Shown here piece after piece: positions 3,390 through 64,000 of a stretch of DNA of 64,000 bases (position 1 is its first letter; the number at the start of each line of letters is the position of its first letter). Source of the stretch: Escherichia phage bumzen; sequence record MN850635.1; one strand, 5' to 3'. The notes below the pieces were generated by a model. It saw only the letters and a list, made by a program, of their open reading frames with translations. It had not been told where the DNA came from and ran no database searches. The position numbers and the translations under genes are program-made.

Positions 3390-4538
3390 ATGGCAGTAGG
3401 TGAAATTCAAATTAGTGCCTTGCCTCAAGCAGCCTTACCAATTGACCTTAGTGATATCTTCCATCTTAAACAGGGTATCGAGGATAAGAGATGTACTCTT
3501 GAGCAATTACTTGCTCCACACTCAAGCCTAAGAAATAACCCTCATGGTGTTACTAAGACACAAATTGGTTTAGATAACGTTATTAATGCTCTCCAGTTAG
3601 TCGCTGCAAATAACTTATCAGATATTGTTAATGTAGCTGAGGCAAGAGCAAATCTACAGATTATGTCTTCAGAAGAGGTTAATAGCCTTATTCAACAGCA
3701 TATTAATGACAAGAGCAACCCACACAATACAACTAAGGCGCAGGTTGGTTTAAGTAATGTCCAGAACTGGGTGACATCTAACCTTTATAATGAGGATGCA
3801 GATAAGTATGCTACAGCAAGAGCAGTAAATAACTTGTACAAGGCTGTTCAGGCTTCTTATCCAGTAGGTACTATCCATCTCTCTATGAATCCTGCAAACC
3901 CTTCTACATATTTAATTTGTGGAGGTACTTGGGAGTTAGTTTCAAAAGGAAGAGCACTTGTAGGTTATGATAGAGATTCTAGGCCAGTTGGTTCAACGTT
4001 TGGTTCACAGACTACTGCACTGACGGTTAATAACATCCCTGCACATACCCACTCAGTGTATGTCACTGGTGGTGGTCACACTCATGGTGCAACGGCCTCT
4101 GTCAGTGCTTTTGATTATGGCACTAAAGGGACTACAACGTTTGACTACGGAACCAAGACCGTATCTACTTACGACTATGGCAACAGAACAACAAGTGCCG
4201 CTGGCTTAACACAAACAACATTCATTAACCGTGGCTATGCTGATGGTGGCTGGAGAGGTTTATCGGTTGAGGGGGCAAGCTATGACCCAAGAGCTACGTT
4301 GACAACAGCTAACAACCACACTCACTCTGTAGCAATTGGTGCGCATAATCACACAGTGGGGATTGGTGCTCACAGCCATTCTGTTGCAATTGGTTCCCAC
4401 AACCACTCAGCAACAGTAACAGTAACCGGAGCAGGTGAGCATTCGCACTCTGGCACAACTGGCACAACTGGTTCTGGTCAAGCATTTAGCGTTGAGCAGC
4501 CATCCTTCGTATTGTATGTATGGCAGAGAACAGCTTAA
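3390..4538 (+). CDS. tail fiber protein (short paralog) with His-x-His repeat tip
   Basis: 382 aa; repeats HTHSV/GAHNHTVGIGAHSHSVAIGSHNHS and SFDYGTK; C-terminus (GSGQAFSVEQPSF..W.RTA) shared with next gene. Confidence 0.7.
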   Translation: MAVGEIQISALPQAALPIDLSDIFHLKQGIEDKRCTLEQLLAPHSSLRNNPHGVTKTQIGLDNVINALQLVAANNLSDIVNVAEARANLQIMSSEEVNSLIQQHINDKSNPHNTTKAQVGLSNVQNWVTSNLYNEDADKYATARAVNNLYKAVQASYPVGTIHLSMNPANPSTYLICGGTWELVSKGRALVGYDRDSRPVGSTFGSQTTALTVNNIPAHTHSVYVTGGGHTHGATASVSAFDYGTKGTTTFDYGTKTVSTYDYGNRTTSAAGLTQTTFINRGYADGGWRGLSVEGASYDPRATLTTANNHTHSVAIGAHNHTVGIGAHSHSVAIGSHNHSATVTVTGAGEHSHSGTTGTTGSGQAFSVEQPSFVLYVWQRTA

Positions 4539-4584: not shown

Positions 4585-6939
4585 ATGGCAGATTACAAGT
4601 TGAGTGAATTAAACTCAATTGATACAATTCGTTCAGACGACCTCCTTCATATCAGGGTTAAAAAGAGACCTGAAATGCTGGGTGATGAAGACCGTCGAAT
4701 GACCTATCAAGACTTCTTAGCGTCTTTTAAACTAGAAAGATTTGTCCAGATTGCTGGTAGCACTATGACGGGTGACTTAGGAATTGTCAAGTTACTTTAT
4801 GGTGGTAAGGCAGTATTTGACCCTACAGGTTCTTCTGAGATTACTATGGGGGATGTTTTAAAGGCTTTTAAAATCAATGCAAATGGTCTTAAACTAACTA
4901 TTGCAGATGCTTCAAGGTCTGCAACTGTTTATCATACTCTTAATAAGCCAAGTCCTAATGAACTTGGGATGAGAACTAATGAAGAGAATGATGCAAGATA
5001 CTCAAGATTGGCTGCAAATAACACCTTTAGAGGTACTCAAAATATTCTATCTGATAATGAAACTATTATTGTTAAGAATATTACACAAGGAATGCCGCTG
5101 TATATTCGCGGTCAAGATGCAGATGGTACTAACAGGTGGTATCTAGGTAATGATAACAAAGGTACAGACAATCTTGTTTTAAAAAATGTTAAATCTGGTG
5201 CATATGTAGCTATTTTGGGTAGCTTAATCACTGTGAACAAATCTATCCAGATTACTGGTCAAGTTCAACCTTCTGATTGGTCTAACTTAGATACTAGATA
5301 CTTTACTCAGACAGCAGCTAATCAGAGATTTGCACAGCTAGTTGGTAATAACACCTTCAGGGGTATTAACAATTTTGTAGGAGAGTTCAATATCACCAGA
5401 GATAACGCTGTGCTAGTCGTTAAGAATGCCACTGCTGCAACTGGACTGTACTTGCTGGGGCAGAAGGCTGATGGGACAAACAAGTTCTACTTAGGGACTG
5501 ATGACTCTGATTCTGTAGTTAATCTACATAACTACATCACAAGCACAACCATCTCTTTGTCAAATGTGATTACCACTACTAAGACTGTGAAAATCACTGG
5601 ACAAGTTCAACCTTCAGATTGGACTAACATTGACTCTAGATACATCTCAGCAGGAACTTTGAGTAATCTTGCTAAGTTAAGTGATGTAAACACTTTTAGG
5701 ATTGCACAGATTATTAATCAGAATGGTTCATTGTTACAGCTAAAGAATACTACACAAGACAAAGAGCTATACTTTGCTGGTCATAATGCTGATGGTGTTA
5801 GAAGGTGGTACATTGGGAATGGGGAACCATCCAACCCAGAAAGATTTATTATCCATAACGACAGAACTGCAACTACGATTTATATGCAAGATGATTTCTT
5901 GCTGAATAAAACTGTTAAAATTACTGGTCAAGTTCAACCATCTGATTGGTCTAACTTAGATGCTAGATACTTCACTCAGGCAGCAGCTAATCAGAGATTT
6001 ATGTATGCAGGTTCTACAGGAGAAGCTACAGAGCAGAATGCAGATGGTGTGGCATGGAACGCTAAAACAGGCTTATATAATGTAACCTCAACAAATGCTG
6101 ATTACACAGCACTTGTGTTTCAAATGTATCAGGGGGTGACCTCTTCTACTGCCTGTGCGCAATTAAAGTTCCAGTATAAAAACGGTGGAATGTGGTACAG
6201 AACATCTGTAGCTAGTAAAGGTTTTGAAGCTAAGTGGTCTAAGGTTTACACAGAGGCTCAGAAACCAACCCCTTCAGAGCTTGGTGCATACACTAAAGCA
6301 GAAACTGACCAGAAGATTGCACAGGCAGTAAGTGACTCTACAGACCTTAATAAAATCTACCCAGTAGGTATTGTAACGTGGTTTAACAGTAATGTTAACC
6401 CTAATACAGCACTGCCTGGTCTAACTTGGACGTACCTTAACAATGGTGTTGGTAGAACTATCAGAATTGCAGCAGCAAACGGTTCAGATGTTGCTACAAC
6501 AGGTGGTTCAGACTCTGTGACGTTAGCTGTTGGTAACTTACCATCACACACTCACAGTTTTTCTGCTACCACTTCATCTTTTGACTACGGAACAAAAAAC
6601 ACTAACACGACTGGTGCTCACGCTCACTCTGTAAGTGGCTCTACTTCATCTGCTGGTAACCACAACCATTCCATTTCGTGGATTGGTCAGAACTCTAAAC
6701 ACTACTCTGGTGGTGGTGGTGGTAGTATTGGTGTAGGACCGGGTTACACCGATGCTAACGGTGCTCACACCCACTCTGTAAGTGGTACTGCCGCTTCTGC
6801 TGGTAACCATGCTCACAGTGTAGGTATCGGTGCTCACACCCATACAGTTAGTGGTAACACTGGTGGTACAGGTTCTGGTTCAGCATTTAGTGTTACTAAC
6901 CAGTTCTACAAGTTAATGGCTTGGGTAAGAACTGCTTAA
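4585..6939 (+). CDS. tail fiber protein (long paralog) with internal tandem repeats and His-x-His tip
   Basis: 784 aa; three ~110 aa repeats each ending [15 protein letters not shown]; C-terminal GAH.HSV repeats and shared C-terminal motif. Confidence 0.75.
4987..5980 (+). repeat. three in-frame tandem ~330 bp repeats inside long tail fiber gene
   Basis: Near-identical DNA segments at ~5255, ~5593 and ~5923 (attactggtcaagttcaacc.tc.gattgg.ctaac). Confidence 0.7.
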
Positions 6940-7018
6940 TCCCTTGTTGACTGATTGTTAAGATGGTGTTAATATTCTTTATGGGTATTCTCACCATCTT
7001 GGCTGATGAGGTGATTAA

Positions 7019-7213
7019 ATGCCTACAATCCTAGCAATTCTTCTAAAAAATCTAGGTAGCTTCTTCTGGAAACTCATTTTATCCCTTCTAAGTGAATACA
7101 TGATTGAGAAAGTGTTCTTTAAGCTTGCAAGATACCTTGCGAGTAAAACAGACACACCTATTGATGATGAGTTCGTAGATAACTTAGAAAAAGCTTTTAA
7201 GGGGGAGAAATAA
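7019..7213 (+). CDS. small membrane protein (holin candidate)
   Basis: 64 aa, hydrophobic N-terminal segment, charged C-terminus; follows fiber genes. Confidence 0.3.
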   Translation: MPTILAILLKNLGSFFWKLILSLLSEYMIEKVFFKLARYLASKTDTPIDDEFVDNLEKAFKGEK

Positions 7214-7585
7214 ATGAAGTGGCTAGAGGAAGCTTTTAAAAATAATATTGGTGCAATTGTAGTTGGTATTTTTAGTGTTATTGGGATGTATACCACGATG
7301 CAAGTCTCAAGTGGTAAGCAAGAAGTATCTGTCACAACAAAGTTACAGCAGCTAGATAATTATTCCAAAAGTAACTATTCAGCTATTCGTGATTTACAGT
7401 CTGACATGAGACTGATTCAGCTAGGGATGGAGAACCAGAAAGTTCAGTTAGAGAATGTTAAGGGTGAAAACGCAAAACTTACCAAAACTCTTGATAAATT
7501 CTCTGACAGTGTGAACAATCTGGCTCAATCAGTATCAGCCTTGCAAGCTATTACTGAAAAGAACACAAAGAATACTGAAAAATAA
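7214..7585 (+). CDS. membrane-anchored coiled-coil protein
   Basis: 123 aa; N-terminal TM segment (IGAIVVGIFSVIGMY) then heptad-rich region. Confidence 0.35.
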   Translation: MKWLEEAFKNNIGAIVVGIFSVIGMYTTMQVSSGKQEVSVTTKLQQLDNYSKSNYSAIRDLQSDMRLIQLGMENQKVQLENVKGENAKLTKTLDKFSDSVNNLAQSVSALQAITEKNTKNTEK

Positions 7586-7590
7586 AATTT

Positions 7591-7620
7591 AAGGCTCCCG
7601 TAAAAAGGAGCCTTTTTTGT
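7591..7620. terminator. bidirectional rho-independent terminator between convergent blocks
   Basis: aaggctcc-cgtaaaa-ggagcctt followed by tttttt; A/T runs on both sides. Confidence 0.7.
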
Positions 7621-7622
7621 TT

Positions 7623-8522
7623 TTACTTACCTACTGACAGAGGTGCTTCAATCTTCCCTGCATGTTGGTAGTTGTTAATACCACCAATAAAATCACTTGC
7701 AGTAAGATGTTTCAGGTCACTCAGGGTGTTAAGCTGTACACCAATCTCAAAAGTAGGTGCATGGAACTCTTCATTGTTCATCAGTTTATAAACCTGCTTC
7801 ATATGGTTCTGATAAATCTGGGTATCCCCAAAGACACCTATCAAGTACCGTGGAGTGTATCCAGTCATCTTGCAAAGAACTTCTAAGATGAAGCCATAAG
7901 ACGCAATGTTAAATGGAAGCCCTAAAAAGGTGTCTACAGAACGTTGATACCATTGCAAGTCAACTTCACCTTCGTTAGTGATATAAATCTGAAACAGGAC
8001 ATGACAAGGTGCTAAAGCCATTGAGTTTGCTGCGATATCTGCTGCATTCCAAGCATTAACAAGCATGTATCGGTCTGTGATATCACCCTTCATCTTCGTT
8101 ACTAAGGTCTCTAGCTGGTCTACAACACAACCGTTATAACCTTCAAAGTTTCTCCACTGAACTCCATAGATTCTCCCACCTGCATCCTCTAACCAATCTT
8201 GTTCAGAAGAATAATTAGAGCTTAACCAACGTTTAAAATCATCTGACCAGATAGTCCAGCGTTCTCCGTCATTTTCATCCCAAGTACGGTAACGAAGTTC
8301 ACCCAGCTTATTCTCACCATTCAGGAACCATAAAGCCTCCCCAATAACTTGCCGTGTAAACACCTGTTTAGATGTTAAGAGCGGGAAACCAGTCCTCATA
8401 TCAAAACGAAACTGAGGTGGAGCAAAAGCAGAGATAACATCTCCAGTTCGTGTAGTACGCAGTTCACCAACGGATAAAACATGGTTCAGGATATTTTTGT
8501 AACTTGTATCTGCTTGTGACAT
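7623..8522 (-). CDS. thyA: thymidylate synthase
   Basis: 299 aa; motifs CHVLFQIY and QRSVDTFLGLPFNIASY. Confidence 0.9.
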   Translation of the reverse strand: MSQADTSYKNILNHVLSVGELRTTRTGDVISAFAPPQFRFDMRTGFPLLTSKQVFTRQVIGEALWFLNGENKLGELRYRTWDENDGERWTIWSDDFKRWLSSNYSSEQDWLEDAGGRIYGVQWRNFEGYNGCVVDQLETLVTKMKGDITDRYMLVNAWNAADIAANSMALAPCHVLFQIYITNEGEVDLQWYQRSVDTFLGLPFNIASYGFILEVLCKMTGYTPRYLIGVFGDTQIYQNHMKQVYKLMNNEEFHAPTFEIGVQLNTLSDLKHLTASDFIGGINNYQHAGKIEAPLSVGK

Positions 8523-18880: not shown

Positions 18881-19107
18881 ACATTACTGCAAAAAATTAT
18901 AAAAAGCAAGTTGACAATGCACTTGACAAGGTGTTAATCTTTGCGAAGTGGGTTTTTACTTAAAAGGTTACTTAACAGTTTAACTATACAGATACTTTAA
19001 AACTCTTAAAAGATTATTTAATAGCTTTTAAAAAGCTTTAAAGTATAACGTATAGAATACGTTAAGATAAAAGATTAAAACTTAATAGTTACTTAAAAGA
19101 GGCTTAC

Positions 19108-54481: not shown

Positions 54482-55012
54482 ATGAACAAATTTCAAGCTA
54501 TCAACCACATTCGTTCAAATAGTGTCATGTCTAAGCCTGTAAAAGACACATACGAATTTCGCTGCAATGGTGTACACTTTGCAACCATCACCAAATCAGA
54601 AAACGGAGCTTATTATGTACATCGTCGTAATGTTGCAACCGTTGTAGTCTCTCACTTTATGCAAGCTGTAGCGGAATTATTGCCGTTATTCTTAGAGATT
54701 TACTTAGATGAGTGTAAAAACGTTCGTAACCACGTTAAAAACCTTTTAAACGGCTATAAAATGGCTTATGAGCGTTCTATCCAGAATCTTAACAAGTTCT
54801 ATAAAGCCCCTGAAAACTCTGTTGCTTCAGCCTATGGCGTAGGCGGTTGGACTGTTAGTCTCTTCGAAGTGGAAGAAATCGAGCTTTACGACCATCGACC
54901 TAGCGGTTACTCTAAGACACTGGGAGAAGGTTTATCTTTCAATATCAAGAACTTAGAAAAAACTTTAAAAGATATTGAAAAAGATATTGACGAAACAATC
55001 AAAAGTCTGTAA
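54482..55012 (+). CDS. hypothetical early protein
   Basis: 176 aa. Confidence 0.5.
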   Translation: MNKFQAINHIRSNSVMSKPVKDTYEFRCNGVHFATITKSENGAYYVHRRNVATVVVSHFMQAVAELLPLFLEIYLDECKNVRNHVKNLLNGYKMAYERSIQNLNKFYKAPENSVASAYGVGGWTVSLFEVEEIELYDHRPSGYSKTLGEGLSFNIKNLEKTLKDIEKDIDETIKSL

Positions 55013-55015
55013 ATT
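54987..55015 (+). promoter_or_regulatory. family-B promoter cassette (overlaps 3' end of previous gene)
   Basis: TTGACG - 17 bp - TAAATT; -10 contains stop codon of 54482-55012. Confidence 0.55.
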
Positions 55016-55091
55016 GTCAATCAACGGGGAGGGAATGACCTTCCCCGCTAAACAAAACCCTTAATCAACTTCCTAAACTGGAGATTCTAAA

Positions 55092-55340
55092 ATGGCTACT
55101 ATCCGCGCAACTGTTAACGAATTTGGCTTCTACTCTCTGGACGTTAAATTTGACCTTGTAGGTACTGATAACGCCTTTGAAATGGTGAAAGGCCTTATCA
55201 GCCAGACCATCAGTGACTACAACCCCTCTGATGAATTCTGGAAAGAAACAAAAGAGGAAGTTCTTAAAGATGGTTACACTTTTCACTATTGGGGAGAAAA
55301 AATCGTCTCCCTGTACTACAACAAACAAGGTTGCAACTAA
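55092..55340 (+). CDS. hypothetical early protein
   Basis: 82 aa; last gene of array. Confidence 0.5.
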   Translation: MATIRATVNEFGFYSLDVKFDLVGTDNAFEMVKGLISQTISDYNPSDEFWKETKEEVLKDGYTFHYWGEKIVSLYYNKQGCN

Positions 55341-55392
55341 TCGACGCAGCGGGGCTAAATAGCCCAGATACCTTTATACAGCCCCTTAAATG

Positions 55393-55420
55393 GGGCTTTT
55401 TGCATCCTATCGAATCCTTA
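55393..55420 (+). terminator. rho-independent terminator ending the plus-strand array
   Basis: cagcccc-ttaaat-ggggct then ttttt. Confidence 0.6.
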
Positions 55421-56971
55421 TACAATCCCTTTCCCTTTCCTTTCTAGAATCTTATCAGACCTTAAAAAGCAATAACTTTACAGCCTTTTACTAAGTCAAT
55501 TAATTGGCCTTATTAATAAGCCCTTAAACATAAGCCAATAACCCCAGAAAGGGGGCAACCCATTTAAACGCCATATAAAGCCCTATAACGGCCTTTTTAA
55601 CCTAACTTAAGGGATTGCATTACCTCACCCTTAAAAGCCCTTTATAAAGCTTCACAGAGCCTTAAAAGAATCTTATAAGGGTGTAAGCTTTATTATCTCG
55701 TTAGCTATCTTGTGAACTACTAAACAACCCCCTTGATAGTAACTGAAAAGTATGTTATAGGGGCTTTAAAGTTACTTTGAAGTAGCTTAAGAGTTACGTA
55801 AATGCTAGCCCCCTTAACATTTTCTTAACAATTTCTTAACAATCCCTACATAGTTATGCTTGTTAGAGACTTGTTAGCCCCTTGTTAAATCTCTGTTAAG
55901 ACCACGTAAAAGCCTTGTAAGAACCTTTGGCATAGCCTTAAAAGCCCCTGAAAAGCCCTATAAAGAGCTATCCATACAGTTGAGGGGTAAATACTAGGAA
56001 GAGACTTAAAAGGGCTTATAAGGGGCTATAGAGAGCTTTTAAGAGGTATGTTTAGAGATTCACTAAGAGGGAAAGGGAACGATAAGAAAAGAGATAGTGA
56101 CCATGTTAATAGCTTGTTAAAAAGATTAAACACTTGTTAGAGACTTGTTAATTATCTTAACAAAATAACTCTTAACATTTAACTACTTAGCTCTTGTTAG
56201 TCATCTGTTAAGATTCTGTAAAGACTATTCAGCACTTGTTAGAAAACTGTTACATCCTTGTTAGTTCTGTTAAGAATCTGTTAAGACCTTTGAAGAGTTG
56301 TTAAGAAGATGTAAGGACTGTTAAGAGATTGTTAAGGATATTTTAAAATTTTGCAAAGTACTTGTAAGGGAGCTGTTAAGGGCTACCAAGCAGATATACA
56401 TCCTAGACAGATATTTTTCAGTTCCTTCAAAGACCCTAAAAAATGACTTGATAGTCCTATTTTATAAAAATTTTAAAATTCTGAATAATTACCTATACAG
56501 TCTTTTAAAAATACAGGTAGAAACAGGCTTACAAGATACCTTGTTAGTACCGTGTTAGACCTTGTGAGGTAAGGTCTGTAAAGATATTCCTGTTAAGTTT
56601 GTTAAAACAGTCTATATAGAGGCTTAGTATTACCTAGTGAACACCTATAGAGAGTGTCATAGCTAACCTAGAGATTAAGAGGTGTATAGGAGCTTCTAAG
56701 AGGGTGTAGAGGGATGGTTAAGGTGATTGTATAGGTGGTTAAGAGGGCTTGTTAGAAGAGTGTTTAGAAGGCTATTTAGAAGGGCTATACAGAGGGCTAT
56801 TAAGACCACTAGATAGTTACTAAGATACTATATAGTACTATATAACTATATAGAGAGTAAGATTAAGAAGGTTGTTAAGAAGGATAGATATTTTATTCAC
56901 ATATGATGGTGACCCAGAGGTTGGGACAACCGATAAAATTTTATAAAAATTATAAATTTCGTAAATTTTAC
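55421..56971. repeat. 1.55 kb ORF-free region with dense short direct repeats
   Basis: More than 30 same-orientation copies of YTGTTARR (cttgttag, ctgttaag, ttgttaaga) at 55.85-56.9 kb plus gccttaaaagc / gccctataaag motifs at 55.5-56.05 kb; no ORF of 60 aa or more on either strand. Confidence 0.8.
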
Positions 56972-57002
56972 TCAATAAAAAGCCCCCAATTAAGGAGGCT
57001 CT
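56972..57002 (-). terminator. rho-independent terminator (minus strand)
   Basis: Minus strand agcctcc-ttaattg-ggggct then ttttt, just 3' of gene 57013-57564. Confidence 0.5.
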
Positions 57003-57012
57003 TAAGATATTT

Positions 57013-57564
57013 TTAAACCAATGTTTCCAGAACTGTTCTTAATGATGGCTTGGTTGTCTGATAAAAATGAGTGAATCCATTGTTGTTATCAAATACCTGC
57101 ATCATGATATCATCTCCCTTGATTGGGTAAACTCGGATATCATAGTGAAAACCATTAAAGACACAAGAACCACTACAGAATGCTCTAAAGTCATCCACTG
57201 AGATGTACTCTTCATGACCTGTGATTTTTATACAAACACCTTTACTCGGCCTCTTAGGGTTGATATCTTCCATCACAGACATACTCTGTCCACCAAGAGA
57301 TACCATAGTGACCACTTTACGGTTCTTCTGTTTAAAGTGCATCTTAACTTTCTGTAAAGTGTCTTCATAGAACGGATAAGACTTCTCTACAAAGATTCCT
57401 TCAAGTGGCTTTTTACCATTTACAGTCTCTCTATTATGCCGTACTGCAAAGATAAGTTGTCTTAGTATGTCGAGACTTTCTTCGGAGAGTGCTTCTCGAA
57501 TATCACTCCAGTCAAGGACTAGGTAGTTACCTTCAACATCTTTTACATCTTTAAAAACTTGCAT
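57013..57564 (-). CDS. hypothetical protein
   Basis: 183 aa ORF. Confidence 0.5.
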   Translation of the reverse strand: MQVFKDVKDVEGNYLVLDWSDIREALSEESLDILRQLIFAVRHNRETVNGKKPLEGIFVEKSYPFYEDTLQKVKMHFKQKNRKVVTMVSLGGQSMSVMEDINPKRPSKGVCIKITGHEEYISVDDFRAFCSGSCVFNGFHYDIRVYPIKGDDIMMQVFDNNNGFTHFYQTTKPSLRTVLETLV

Positions 57565-57618
57565 ATTCGCTACCTTCTAAGCTTCTACAAAGGGGATATC
57601 AAGTAACCCCTCAAGTTA

Positions 57619-57843
57619 CTACTCAGACTTTTCAGTCTTCTTATCGGATTTCTTACTAGTCTTCTTCTCAGCTTTCTGTTCAGGTTCCTTCTCAGAAGTT
57701 GCCTTGATAACCATATCAAGAAGCTCTGATAAATCACTCTTCAGCAAAGTAACAGGCTGCTCGTTGTAGAAGTTTTTGTCAAGATAAACTTTAAACTCTT
57801 CTATAGAAGGAAATCCAAAAATTGGTACAGGTGTTTTAATCAT
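57619..57843 (-). CDS. hypothetical small protein with basic C-terminus
   Basis: 74 aa ORF. Confidence 0.4.
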   Translation of the reverse strand: MIKTPVPIFGFPSIEEFKVYLDKNFYNEQPVTLLKSDLSELLDMVIKATSEKEPEQKAEKKTSKKSDKKTEKSE

Positions 57844-57919
57844 TACTTAGTCTCTCCATAGGCATCTTTTAAGATTGCCTTGTTAATCATTTCAGCGATT
57901 GCAAAACGAACACATACAG

Positions 57920-58465
57920 CTATAATTGTAGGTTGCATTCTTTACTTACCTCTTCAAGTTTAACCTCAGAATCCTTAAGTCGTTTCTTATGAACTCTGAA
58001 CCTTATTAGTGAGATGATAATACCAGCTAAAGGAACAGCATACAAGTACCAGATATCATGTATCTTTGTAGTAATCTGTGTAGTAATCTGTGTAATGGTC
58101 AAATCTTGAGCTATGCAGCTAATTGCTGATACTGCCAGTAACGTTGCTAAGAAGAACGCCAGTACCATAACAATACTTAGGCAACCTCTGGCATGGTGTT
58201 CATGCTTAATACACTTATTCTTTTCGTCAACAACCCTGTTGTAGTCATTTGCAAAGTCTCTGTAGAAAGCTTTCAGGTATTCTTGAGTGTAGCCTTCAAA
58301 GCAACCTGTACCATACCAATAATCACCACCAAAATGTGCTATGATACCAACCTCTCCATTTGGTTTCGTCACTCTTAAAGAAGTATGATGGCAAGTATCC
58401 TGAAAATCTATCTTGTATCTTTCTTCGTAAATCATTTTCCAACCCCTCTCAATCGTTTGTTCCAC
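57920..58465 (-). CDS. membrane protein
   Basis: 181 aa; two C-terminal hydrophobic segments. Confidence 0.45.
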   Translation of the reverse strand: MEQTIERGWKMIYEERYKIDFQDTCHHTSLRVTKPNGEVGIIAHFGGDYWYGTGCFEGYTQEYLKAFYRDFANDYNRVVDEKNKCIKHEHHARGCLSIVMVLAFFLATLLAVSAISCIAQDLTITQITTQITTKIHDIWYLYAVPLAGIIISLIRFRVHKKRLKDSEVKLEEVSKECNLQL

Positions 58466-63531: not shown

Positions 63532-63758
63532 GGCAGACCTACAGCTTTAAGTAAGATGGTACAGTAATCCATACAACAAGTCAAGAACTATTGCAAGTTA
63601 AAAAAGTTGTTGACAAAGTACTTGACAAGGTGTAGGCTTATAAATACTTAGAAGATAACTTAAAAGGTTCCTCTAAAAAGGCTATTTAAACAGATATCTT
63701 TCTGGATATCTATCTTTTATCTTAAAAGCCTTTTAAGAGGTCTTATAAGAGGCATACC

Positions 63759-64000
63759 AATGAAAAACAGAACAAACAAAGGCCAGTTTAAAAAAGGCCA
63801 GTCTGGAAACCCATCTGGAAGACCAAAAGGCTCTCGTAACAAAAGCTCACTCGTAAAAGCTCAACTGACCATTGATAATTCTGCTGAGTTTGCTGCAAAG
63901 TTGTTTGAGGCGATTGTTACAAGGGACGCTGCTAAGCTTGCAGAGTTCGGGTTAAACACAGATGATGTAACCATCAAGAGTATGATTGAGGTCGGTAAAA
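63759..64000 (+). CDS. 3'-truncated CDS, basic N-terminus with GNPSGRPKG motif (possible DNA-binding/packaging protein)
   Basis: ATG 63759, open to window end; MKNRTNKGQFKKGQSGNPSGRPKGSRNK. Confidence 0.4.

Follow-up and report, generated by a model that had tools for sequence, protein, structure and literature searches.

A repeat-filled non-coding gap in Escherichia phage bumzen is almost certainly the genome-end region of a Felix O1-like phage

The 64,000-nucleotide stretch of Escherichia phage bumzen analysed here (sequence record MN850635.1; hereafter the window) contains a 1.55-kb gap at 55421-56971 that is free of long open reading frames (ORFs) and crowded with short repeats of the core TGTTA. 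This gap is almost certainly the genome-end or concatemer-junction region, in which 55808-56387 would be the short exact direct terminal repeat (DTR) and the remainder its unique non-coding flanks. The element is already known, as the short DTR of Felix O1-like phages that has been mapped in close relatives. No description of its internal repeat architecture was found in the literature on Felix O1, wV8, VpaE1, UAB_Phi87 and Bas63 or in comparative Felixounavirus studies, and the following appear to be undescribed: about 24 outward-facing TGTTA elements placed one per helical turn and inverted at both cut sites, 11-bp steps in the length of the repeat, and a match to the binding site of the ArcA type. 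The identity of the gap and the mechanism proposed below make up, when taken together, an explanation that we hold to be probable. The repeat array is a modest, testable lead to the end-recognition factor; the element itself is explained and is not new.

Identity of the gap

In MW481326 (phage Pr103Blw), a 'short direct terminal repeat region' is annotated at 1-581 and 87841-88421, with no mismatch between the copies; this 581-bp DTR was obtained with PhageTerm (PMC8303462). OK539913 (Citrobacter phage HP1, Mooglevirus) has a 570-bp repeat_region at both ends, and in PP886228 (phage D4) the opening 581 bp recur exactly at the end of the record. All three DTRs aligned end to end with 55808-56387 at about 80-90% identity. 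Alignment with relatives had been proposed as a check in the preliminary description of this DNA, and it showed that the region is kept. The left junction (...GTAAATGCTA/GCCCCCTTAACA..., that is GCTA/GCCCCCTTAACA, the slash marking the boundary) and the right junction (...TGTTAAGGGCTACC/AAGCAGATATAC..., also written ...GGGCTACC/AAGCAGATA) are identical in Pr103Blw, D4 and HP1, and further database records start or stop at both boundary positions. The window holds one copy of the DTR, which indicates that the assembly was collapsed and opened elsewhere.

The ends of phage UAB_Phi87 were determined by Bal31 digestion and run-off sequencing, which gave a 608-bp DTR and Bal31-sensitive SpeI fragments of 4322 and 2819 bp (PMC4837284). 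From the conserved boundaries we predicted terminal SpeI fragments of 4435 and 2747 bp, which lie at the same locus as published. A 613-bp repeat has been reported for Ro111lw. The DTRs of UAB_Phi87, Pr103Blw, Ro111lw and HP1, of which the last three were delimited by PhageTerm or annotation, agree with 55808-56387 in being the same element with the same boundaries and the same non-coding, convergent setting. In the more distant Kolesnikvirus, whose members infect Erwinia and Hafnia, the starts and stops of records fall at about 2166 and about 2606, respectively, of locus L037. They bracket a repeat of about 440 bp, and the boundaries (...TTA/GCCACTTTTACA... and ...GCCACTA/AGTAGATATAC...) are homologous. 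We also observed that the DTR of UAB_Phi87 delimited by the conserved boundaries (locus L154, JN225449.1, oriented positions 7236-7849) is 614 bp long against the published 608 bp, and that the GenBank record of this phage has 87,603 bp against 87,669 bp in the paper.

The fixed boundaries and the exact repeat in relatives point to a fixed-end DTR site and rule out a headful pac site. A packaging or pac function had been one of the options raised in the preliminary description; it stands in the sense of a concatemer junction where the terminase would make the ends, and falls in the sense of headful packaging. Judged from the relatives, Felix O1-type ends are fixed and non-permuted and lie at conserved boundary sequences. 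The large terminase (TerL) of the Felix O1 group has been placed in the DTR cluster (PMC4837284); on the map of D4, its gene lies outside the window.

The region was matched by 255 phage records, nearly all from Felixounavirus and related Ounavirinae (phages of Escherichia, Salmonella, Shigella and Citrobacter); of these records, 184 span 80% or more of its length, with identities of about 78-93%. By these matches the source genome is a Felix O1-like myovirus of Felixounavirus. Relatives with annotation show the homologous stretch as an unannotated gap, flanked on both sides by convergent blocks of small hypothetical genes. The longest ORF of the gap on either strand is 45 amino acids, so the claim that it lacks ORFs of 60 amino acids or more was borne out, as it was in 17 relatives, where the longest ORF of the homologous gap is 54 amino acids and most are below 45. 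No conserved small gene was found in the gap among these 17 relatives, and the 45-amino-acid ORF of the window is broken by stops or frameshifts in most of them. Convergent terminators at the two borders, also claimed previously, are each recognisable by a stem and a T run (Table 1). In virion order, the terminator at 55380-55402 closes the last gene block before the right genome end, and that at 56975-56997 closes the first gene block after the left genome end.

One of the database matches is out of place: GU169904.1, 'Staphylococcus phage SA1' (147 kb), carries an 89%-identical copy of the Felix O1-type region at 135316-137166. An enterobacterial region in such a record indicates a chimeric or contaminated database entry.

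Repeats and architecture of the terminal repeat

The preliminary description counted more than 30 copies of YTGTTARR at an irregular spacing of 8-15 bp. Exact YTGTTARR occurs 17 times on the plus strand and 3 times on the minus strand of the gap, against 0.66 ± 0.81 (maximum 4) in dinucleotide shuffles. The earlier count therefore fits degenerate copies only, since with one mismatch there are 34 on the plus strand, compared with about 8 per 1551 bp elsewhere in the window. The core TGTTA occurs 26 times on the plus strand (shuffles 2.9 ± 1.7, maximum 9) and 5 times on the minus strand, so that both motifs passed the proposed comparison with shuffled sequence. The spacing is not irregular: 13 of the 25 successive distances between TGTTA cores are exactly 11 bp, and most of the others are 9, 20 or 31 bp. 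Other stretches of 1551 bp contain at most 9 TGTTA per strand against 27 here, and no part of the 64 kb has a stronger 10-11.5 bp periodicity than the gap (power 30-42, compared with 10.1 ± 4.0 elsewhere); the remark that nothing else in the window is as dense was thus correct. The gccttaaaagc, gccctataaag and cttataagggg motifs and the TACTATATAG run near the right border are also present as described.

The cores are concentrated in the DTR, which holds 24 of the 31 (19 on the plus strand, where 1.0 is expected, p = 4e-18; 5 on the minus strand). Unbiased k-mer enrichment divided the gap into three vocabularies, namely CCTTAAA and AAGCCCT on the left, CTTGTTA and TGTTAAG in the middle, and CTATATAG and TAAGAGGGC on the right. 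In the left flank, CCTTAAA occurs 4 times (0.07 expected) and AAGCCCT 3 times (0.03 expected), the periodicity peaks at 11.5 bp, and conservation is 78% on average with one replaced segment at about 55480-55530. The right flank comprises 584 bp of unique DNA after the left-hand DTR copy.

The features are listed in Table 1. Read inward from its two ends, the DTR starts with GCCCCCTTAACA and GGTAGCCCTTAACA, which form short inverted termini, and an inverted repeat (I1) pairs 55814-55851 with 56309-56346 at 84% complementarity. The left-terminal triple repeat has the same position and orientation in Pr103Blw, D4, HP1 and the Erwinia phage FIfi106. Across the central dyad the strand composition switches from C-rich to G-rich. 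Towards the right, the last plus-strand core (56374) ends 9 bp from the end of the DTR, and two reverse copies lie at 56158 and 56173.

Table 1. Features of the gap and its borders in the window
Feature	Position	Strand	Remarks
Intrinsic terminator, end of rightward gene block	55380-55402	+	Stem 55380-55397 and T run; homologue annotated in AYO145A
Left flank	55421-55807		387 bp, unique, non-coding; in the virion next to the right-hand DTR copy, on its inner side; motifs of the CCTTAAA / AAGCCCT type, phased at about 11-12 bp; two AGTTAC copies just before the boundary
Short DTR (putative in this genome)	55808-56387		580 bp, once in the collapsed assembly; left end starts GCCCCCTTAACA, right end finishes TGTTAAGGGCTACC
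Left-terminal triple repeat	55813-55843	-	CTTAACA x3 (TGTTAAG on the minus strand), 11-bp spacing; 6 bp from the left end and reading towards it
Array 1	55861-55898	+	TGTTA x4 at exact 11-bp spacing (55861, 55872, 55883, 55894); faces away from the left-terminal triple repeat
Central dyad of the DTR	55929-56045		AGCCCCTGAAAAGCCCTATAAAG (55943-55965) and CTTAAAAGGGCTTATAAGGGGCT (56005-56027); inverted repeat I7, 83% complementary
Arrays 2 and 3	56104-56378	+	15 TGTTA cores and in-phase TGTAA variants, mostly 11 or 20 bp apart, all towards the right end
Boundary-proximal block outside the DTR	56388-56420		AAGCAGATATAC...GACAGATATTT; CAGATAT twice; nearly invariant, about 100% in 18 sequences
Near-consensus IHF-like site	56442-56455	-	TATCAAGTCATTT; 55 bp outside the right DTR boundary
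A+T block	56459-56492		34 bp, 90% A+T, invariant in 18 relatives; adjoins the IHF-like site
Remaining right flank	56493-56971		TGTTA pairs 56542/56553 and 56591/56600; second AT-rich block 56933-56972
G-rich repeats of the right flank	56640-56810		TAAGAGGG / TAGAGGG, period about 12 bp
TACTATATAG x3	56826-56854
Intrinsic terminator, end of leftward gene block	56975-56997	-	Stem 56997-56983 and T run; annotated in AYO145A

In an alignment of 18 sequences, the whole non-coding region is as conserved as the adjacent coding DNA, and within the DTR the core columns are 97% conserved against 86% for the non-core columns. The 18 sequences were picked by an exact match to part of the 56388-56420 block, at the right boundary, which inflates the conservation there. 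AGTAGATATAC at the Kolesnikvirus boundary is the homologue of the same block. The TGTTA design recurs in three genera. FIfi106 can be aligned to the window over about 85 bp of the TGTTAAG array only; its convergent gap of 1.49 kb contains 20 TGTTA on the plus strand, mostly 11 bp apart, and is laid out with reverse copies at the left end of the repeat and forward arrays towards the right end.

Among 28 relatives (loci L001-L036), the DTR equivalents fall into length classes of about 570, 580, 591, 602, 613, 623 and 633 bp, and these lengths are most coherent in phase at a period of 11.0 bp (R = 0.80; for the 17 unique lengths, Rayleigh p about 1e-4). The steps correspond to whole repeat units gained or lost, and could reflect slippage alone or selection for the rotational register of the ends. 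One may go further and suppose that the repeats have no sequence-specific function at all and are tandem units made by slippage in a dispensable spacer around short terminase cut signals. Variation by whole 11-bp units is a product of replication slippage, and the flanks include stretches that show little conservation or have been replaced. However, the cores are kept above the spacers, and motif, spacing and orientation persist in Kolesnikvirus where the surroundings have diverged past alignment. The number of TGTTA cores per DTR is also steady (19-23) despite lengths of 567-658 bp. We regard such functionless repeats as very unlikely.

A source of non-coding RNA and a partition (parC-like) centromere had also been suggested for this region. 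Its conservation and lack of ORFs would suit both, and clustered 11-bp direct repeats recall parC of plasmid R1. However, Rfam covariance models gave no match at E <= 1 to 54500-58000 on both strands, sigma-70-like sites in the gap are at chance level (13 against 9.6 ± 3.0) with no promoter excess, and the terminators on both sides face inward. As to partition, the phage is virulent, and neither ParM/ParR-like genes nor any other recognisable ones were seen next to the region. Neither suggestion found support, and we consider it extremely unlikely that the region is the one or the other.

Proposed mechanism

We propose the following course of events at the junction. Virion DNA would carry the DTR at each end, and replicating concatemers would have a single copy at every junction; the convergent terminators would keep transcription off the junction. 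The TGTTA(A/G) repeats, one per helical turn and outward at both boundaries, would be head-to-tail sites for a sequence-specific DNA-binding protein. By coating one face of the DNA cooperatively, this protein would flag the junction and bring the terminase into position. One nick by the terminase would fall in the top strand at 55807/55808 and another in the bottom strand at 56387/56388. As in the T7 model, the 580 bp would then be copied by strand-displacement synthesis, so that every daughter genome receives a complete repeat. The inverted boundaries would let a single recognition geometry serve both cuts.

The helical phasing, the core-specific conservation and the conservation across genera support well, although indirectly, the view that the repeats are a protein-binding array. 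To this extent the preliminary description, which had proposed such an array, is sustained. That the arrays nucleate a protein complex which marks the junction and positions the terminase, with the DTR duplicated as in T7, is a more specific proposal, to which we would give about an even chance. The binder might be a phage recognition subunit that has escaped recognition, or a host regulator of the OmpR/PhoB family acting as an accessory factor. The former is conceivable because no small terminase is annotated or reported in the records and literature of the Felix O1-like group.

Several points weigh against the identity and mechanism put forward here. The ends of this genome are placed by homology. 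The predicted SpeI fragments of UAB_Phi87 differ from the published ones by 72 and 113 bp. The two ends are imperfectly symmetric, the distance to the start of TTAACA being 6 nt at the left end and 8 nt at the right. Some TGTTA repeats lie beyond the DTR, in the right flank, so that the role of the repeats may exceed end formation. The quantised lengths could be due to nothing more than slippage of tandem 11-bp units. Protein binding at the repeats is a prediction. With regard to the binder, no OmpR/PhoB homologue was found among the 331 window ORFs of at least 50 amino acids by a PhoB/OmpR/ArcA hidden Markov model (best E-value 0.1). The ten genes flanking the gap gave no Pfam family above threshold and only PHROGs of unknown function, and neither gene next to TerL in D4 shows a signature of DNA binding.

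These two D4 genes were tried as small terminase and rejected: they encode a DUF7217 coiled-coil protein and a 66-amino-acid protein of unknown function, with no meaningful sequence match in PDB.

The gap has no match to the strict IHF consensus and one near-match, the site listed in Table 1. Mutants of himA and himD were resistant to Felix O1 in a random barcode transposon sequencing (RB-TnSeq) screen of Salmonella (PMC8744999). The IHF-like site, the adjoining A+T block and this phenotype suggest an accessory bend like that at lambda cos, which we offer as a lead only. The same features can be read as signs of a replication origin, with the TGTTA repeats as iterons and the A+T block at 56459-56492 as the unwinding element. 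The phased direct repeats are iteron-like, the invariant block lies beside the near-consensus site, IHF mutants resist Felix O1 (PMC8744999), and the region is at the maximum of the cumulative GC skew (skew of -0.15 at 55-56 kb and +0.27 at 56-57 kb). On the other hand, the repeats fill the DTR and are symmetric about the two cut sites, a layout that an origin leaves unexplained, and a skew maximum is expected from convergent transcription. A single DnaA-box-like 9-mer, with one mismatch, is at chance level; no initiator gene was recognised among the ten flanking genes; and the promoter excess that a transcription-primed origin would require is missing. The origin proposed in the preliminary description thus keeps its iteron-like repeats and AT-rich block and gained no further positive evidence. 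We consider an origin here, in whole or in part, to be quite improbable.

A host regulator as candidate binder

Winged-helix proteins of the OmpR/PhoB family typically bind head to tail to direct repeats that are spaced by one helical turn. A well-defined case is phosphorylated ArcA (ArcA-P), whose sites consist of 10-bp elements with the core TGTTA arranged as direct repeats 11 bp centre to centre; they usually contain 2-5 elements, most of them 3-5, and added consensus elements raise the affinity (PMC3798270, PMC4173790). The core, the direct orientation and the 11-bp spacing (13 of 25) of the phage repeats fit this definition. We scanned the window with a matrix built from 115 ArcA boxes found by chromatin immunoprecipitation sequencing (Table S3 of the published ArcA paper) at the authors' threshold of 15 bits. 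Seven boxes of at least 15 bits were found within the 580 bp of the DTR; the remaining 63 kb have 5 such boxes, and shuffled DTR sequence gave 0.04. The two boxes of the left-terminal triple repeat reach 22.7 and 22.5 bits, more than any of the 115 training sites (9.6-21.5 bits). At the same position, Pr103Blw, D4, HP1 and FIfi106, which represent three genera, score 20-23 bits. Array 1 contains one ArcA-type box (17.9 bits at 55882), and arrays 2 and 3 contain five of at least 14.6 bits.

It is conceivable, then, that the arrays are sites for host ArcA-P or another OmpR/PhoB regulator such as PmrA/BasR. Such a protein could play an architectural part at the junction, in the way that IHF does at lambda cos; it could protect the incoming DNA ends from RecBCD by capping them 6-9 bp from each terminus; or it could be titrated by many replicated copies (hundreds) of the array, with de-repression of respiratory metabolism. 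Further observations agree with a host factor. The hosts, E. coli, Salmonella, Citrobacter and Erwinia, have a conserved ArcA in common. No phage-encoded OmpR/PhoB homologue was found among the window ORFs, Bas63 is reported to be without a RecBCD inhibitor, and unrelated viral contigs with similar arrays have no detectable protein in common with Ounavirinae. Disruption of arcB made Salmonella resistant to Felix O1 (PMC8744999).

However, the arcB effect was also seen with an unrelated phage and attributed to RpoS, and arcA is absent from the curated list of Felix O1 resistance genes in the Salmonella RB-TnSeq screen, which includes arcB, himA, himD and trxA (PMC8744999). Among copies of the phage element TGTTAAG, 27-29% carry G at +5 and 43-48% at +6, against 3% and 8% of ArcA boxes; the element lacks the A/T-rich 3' tail of the ArcA type (ATGTTAAAAA). 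Read on the reverse strand, CTTAACA is equally reminiscent of the half-site of PmrA/BasR, so that the match would concern the family as a whole and not just ArcA. These phages grow well in aerobic culture, a condition in which ArcA is for the most part unphosphorylated. Binding of ArcA-P to the DTR is predicted from the matrix, and no literature linking Felix O1 with ArcA was found. On balance we think it unlikely that a host OmpR/PhoB regulator uses the arrays in any of the three ways above. It is likewise doubtful that the DTR is a dense conserved array for a regulator of this family, with ArcA-P as the best match and the strongest sites 6-9 bp from the ends. The transcription-factor sink of the preliminary description accordingly keeps the ArcA-type match in its favour and remains a minority reading.

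Elsewhere in the window, three TGTTA-type direct repeats with 11-bp spacing are found at 6944-6972, with ArcA-matrix boxes of 16.7 and 15.1 bits. They lie just downstream of the ORF at 4585-6939 and overlap a sigma-70-like promoter, TTGACT-17-TAATAT. The site might be a phage promoter under the control of the protein that binds the terminal repeat.

Comparison with known systems

The concatemer junction of T7 reportedly has a 160-bp terminal repeat, flanking arrays of short repeats (SRL and SRR) and pac signals. As T7 is generally described, the two systems share a short exact DTR, non-permuted ends, a terminase acting on the concatemer junction, duplication of the repeat and arrays of short direct repeats. 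They differ in that the 7-bp repeats of T7 stand beside the terminal repeat and are irregularly spaced, whereas those of the phage studied here are inside it, phased at 11 bp and inverted at the boundaries. Maturation in T7 is, by the same accounts, coupled to transcription by T7 RNA polymerase; here terminators insulate the junction, and the phage is without an RNA polymerase of its own.

The ArcA-P sites of E. coli (Park et al. 2013; Park and Kiley 2014) resemble the phage array in core, spacing, direct orientation and multi-element build, and the phage boxes have equal or higher matrix scores. In contrast, chromosomal sites have 2-5 elements at promoters, whereas about 24 cores stand in a DTR without promoters. 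The 3' tail of the phage element contains G and is not A/T-rich, and arcA has not been reported as a host factor of Felix O1.

Short repeated elements around a cleavage site together with a site for a host bending protein also recall, as those systems are commonly described, cosB of lambda and pac of P1. Lambda cosB consists of the R-sites of gpNu1 and an IHF site, and P1 pac has hexamer clusters on both sides of the cut and uses host IHF/HU. The ends are different: lambda has cohesive ends and P1 permuted ends made by the headful, whereas two cut sites 580 bp apart are indicated here. In lambda and P1 the elements serve the recognition subunit of the terminase, which in the present phage is hypothetical.

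For annotation, the present reading would mean that the largest 'mystery' gap of the genome is its ends, and that records opened elsewhere, such as this one, hide the 580-bp repeat and under-report the genome length. The phased, outward TGTTA arrays give a concrete DNA target for finding the end-recognition factor of Felix O1-like phages. If the binder were a host response regulator, maturation or end protection of the phage DNA would be tied to redox sensing by the host, and the constancy of the motif across phages of E. coli, Salmonella, Citrobacter and Erwinia would be explained.

Other observations

Arrays of TGTTAAG or TGTTAAT with 11-bp spacing were also seen in the non-coding DNA of unrelated viral contigs of IMG/VR (L082, about 590-800; L105, about 4100-4500; L126, about 5900-6330; L089, about 7000-7420; L092, about 5970-6130). 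In one of them, an 11-bp-phased CCTTTTTTAA array precedes the TGTTA array. The array-bearing contigs have no identifiable relatives and no detectable protein in common with the Ounavirinae loci. A search of IMG/VR with the triple consensus repeat returned more than 120 contigs, mostly unrelated, and was too noisy to separate a host from a phage factor. On the reading of a host OmpR/PhoB regulator as the binder, these arrays would make its recruitment a wider phage strategy.

The G-rich repeats of the right flank (TTAAGAGGTG, CTAAGAGGGTG and TTAAGAGGGC at 56640-56810) resemble plus-strand Shine-Dalgarno sequences, and no ORF follows them. The likeness would be relevant only with read-through transcripts past the terminator at 55380-55402.

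Two further intergenic places in the window, 18900-19100 and 63590-63760, have doubled TTGACA boxes (GTTGACAA...CTTGACAAGGTG) followed by CTTAAAAG motifs like those of the left flank of the gap. CTTAAAAG shows a strand bias in the window, with 23 copies on the plus strand against 7 on the minus strand. Both places are probably strong early promoters, and at about 18.9 kb the flanking ORFs diverge.

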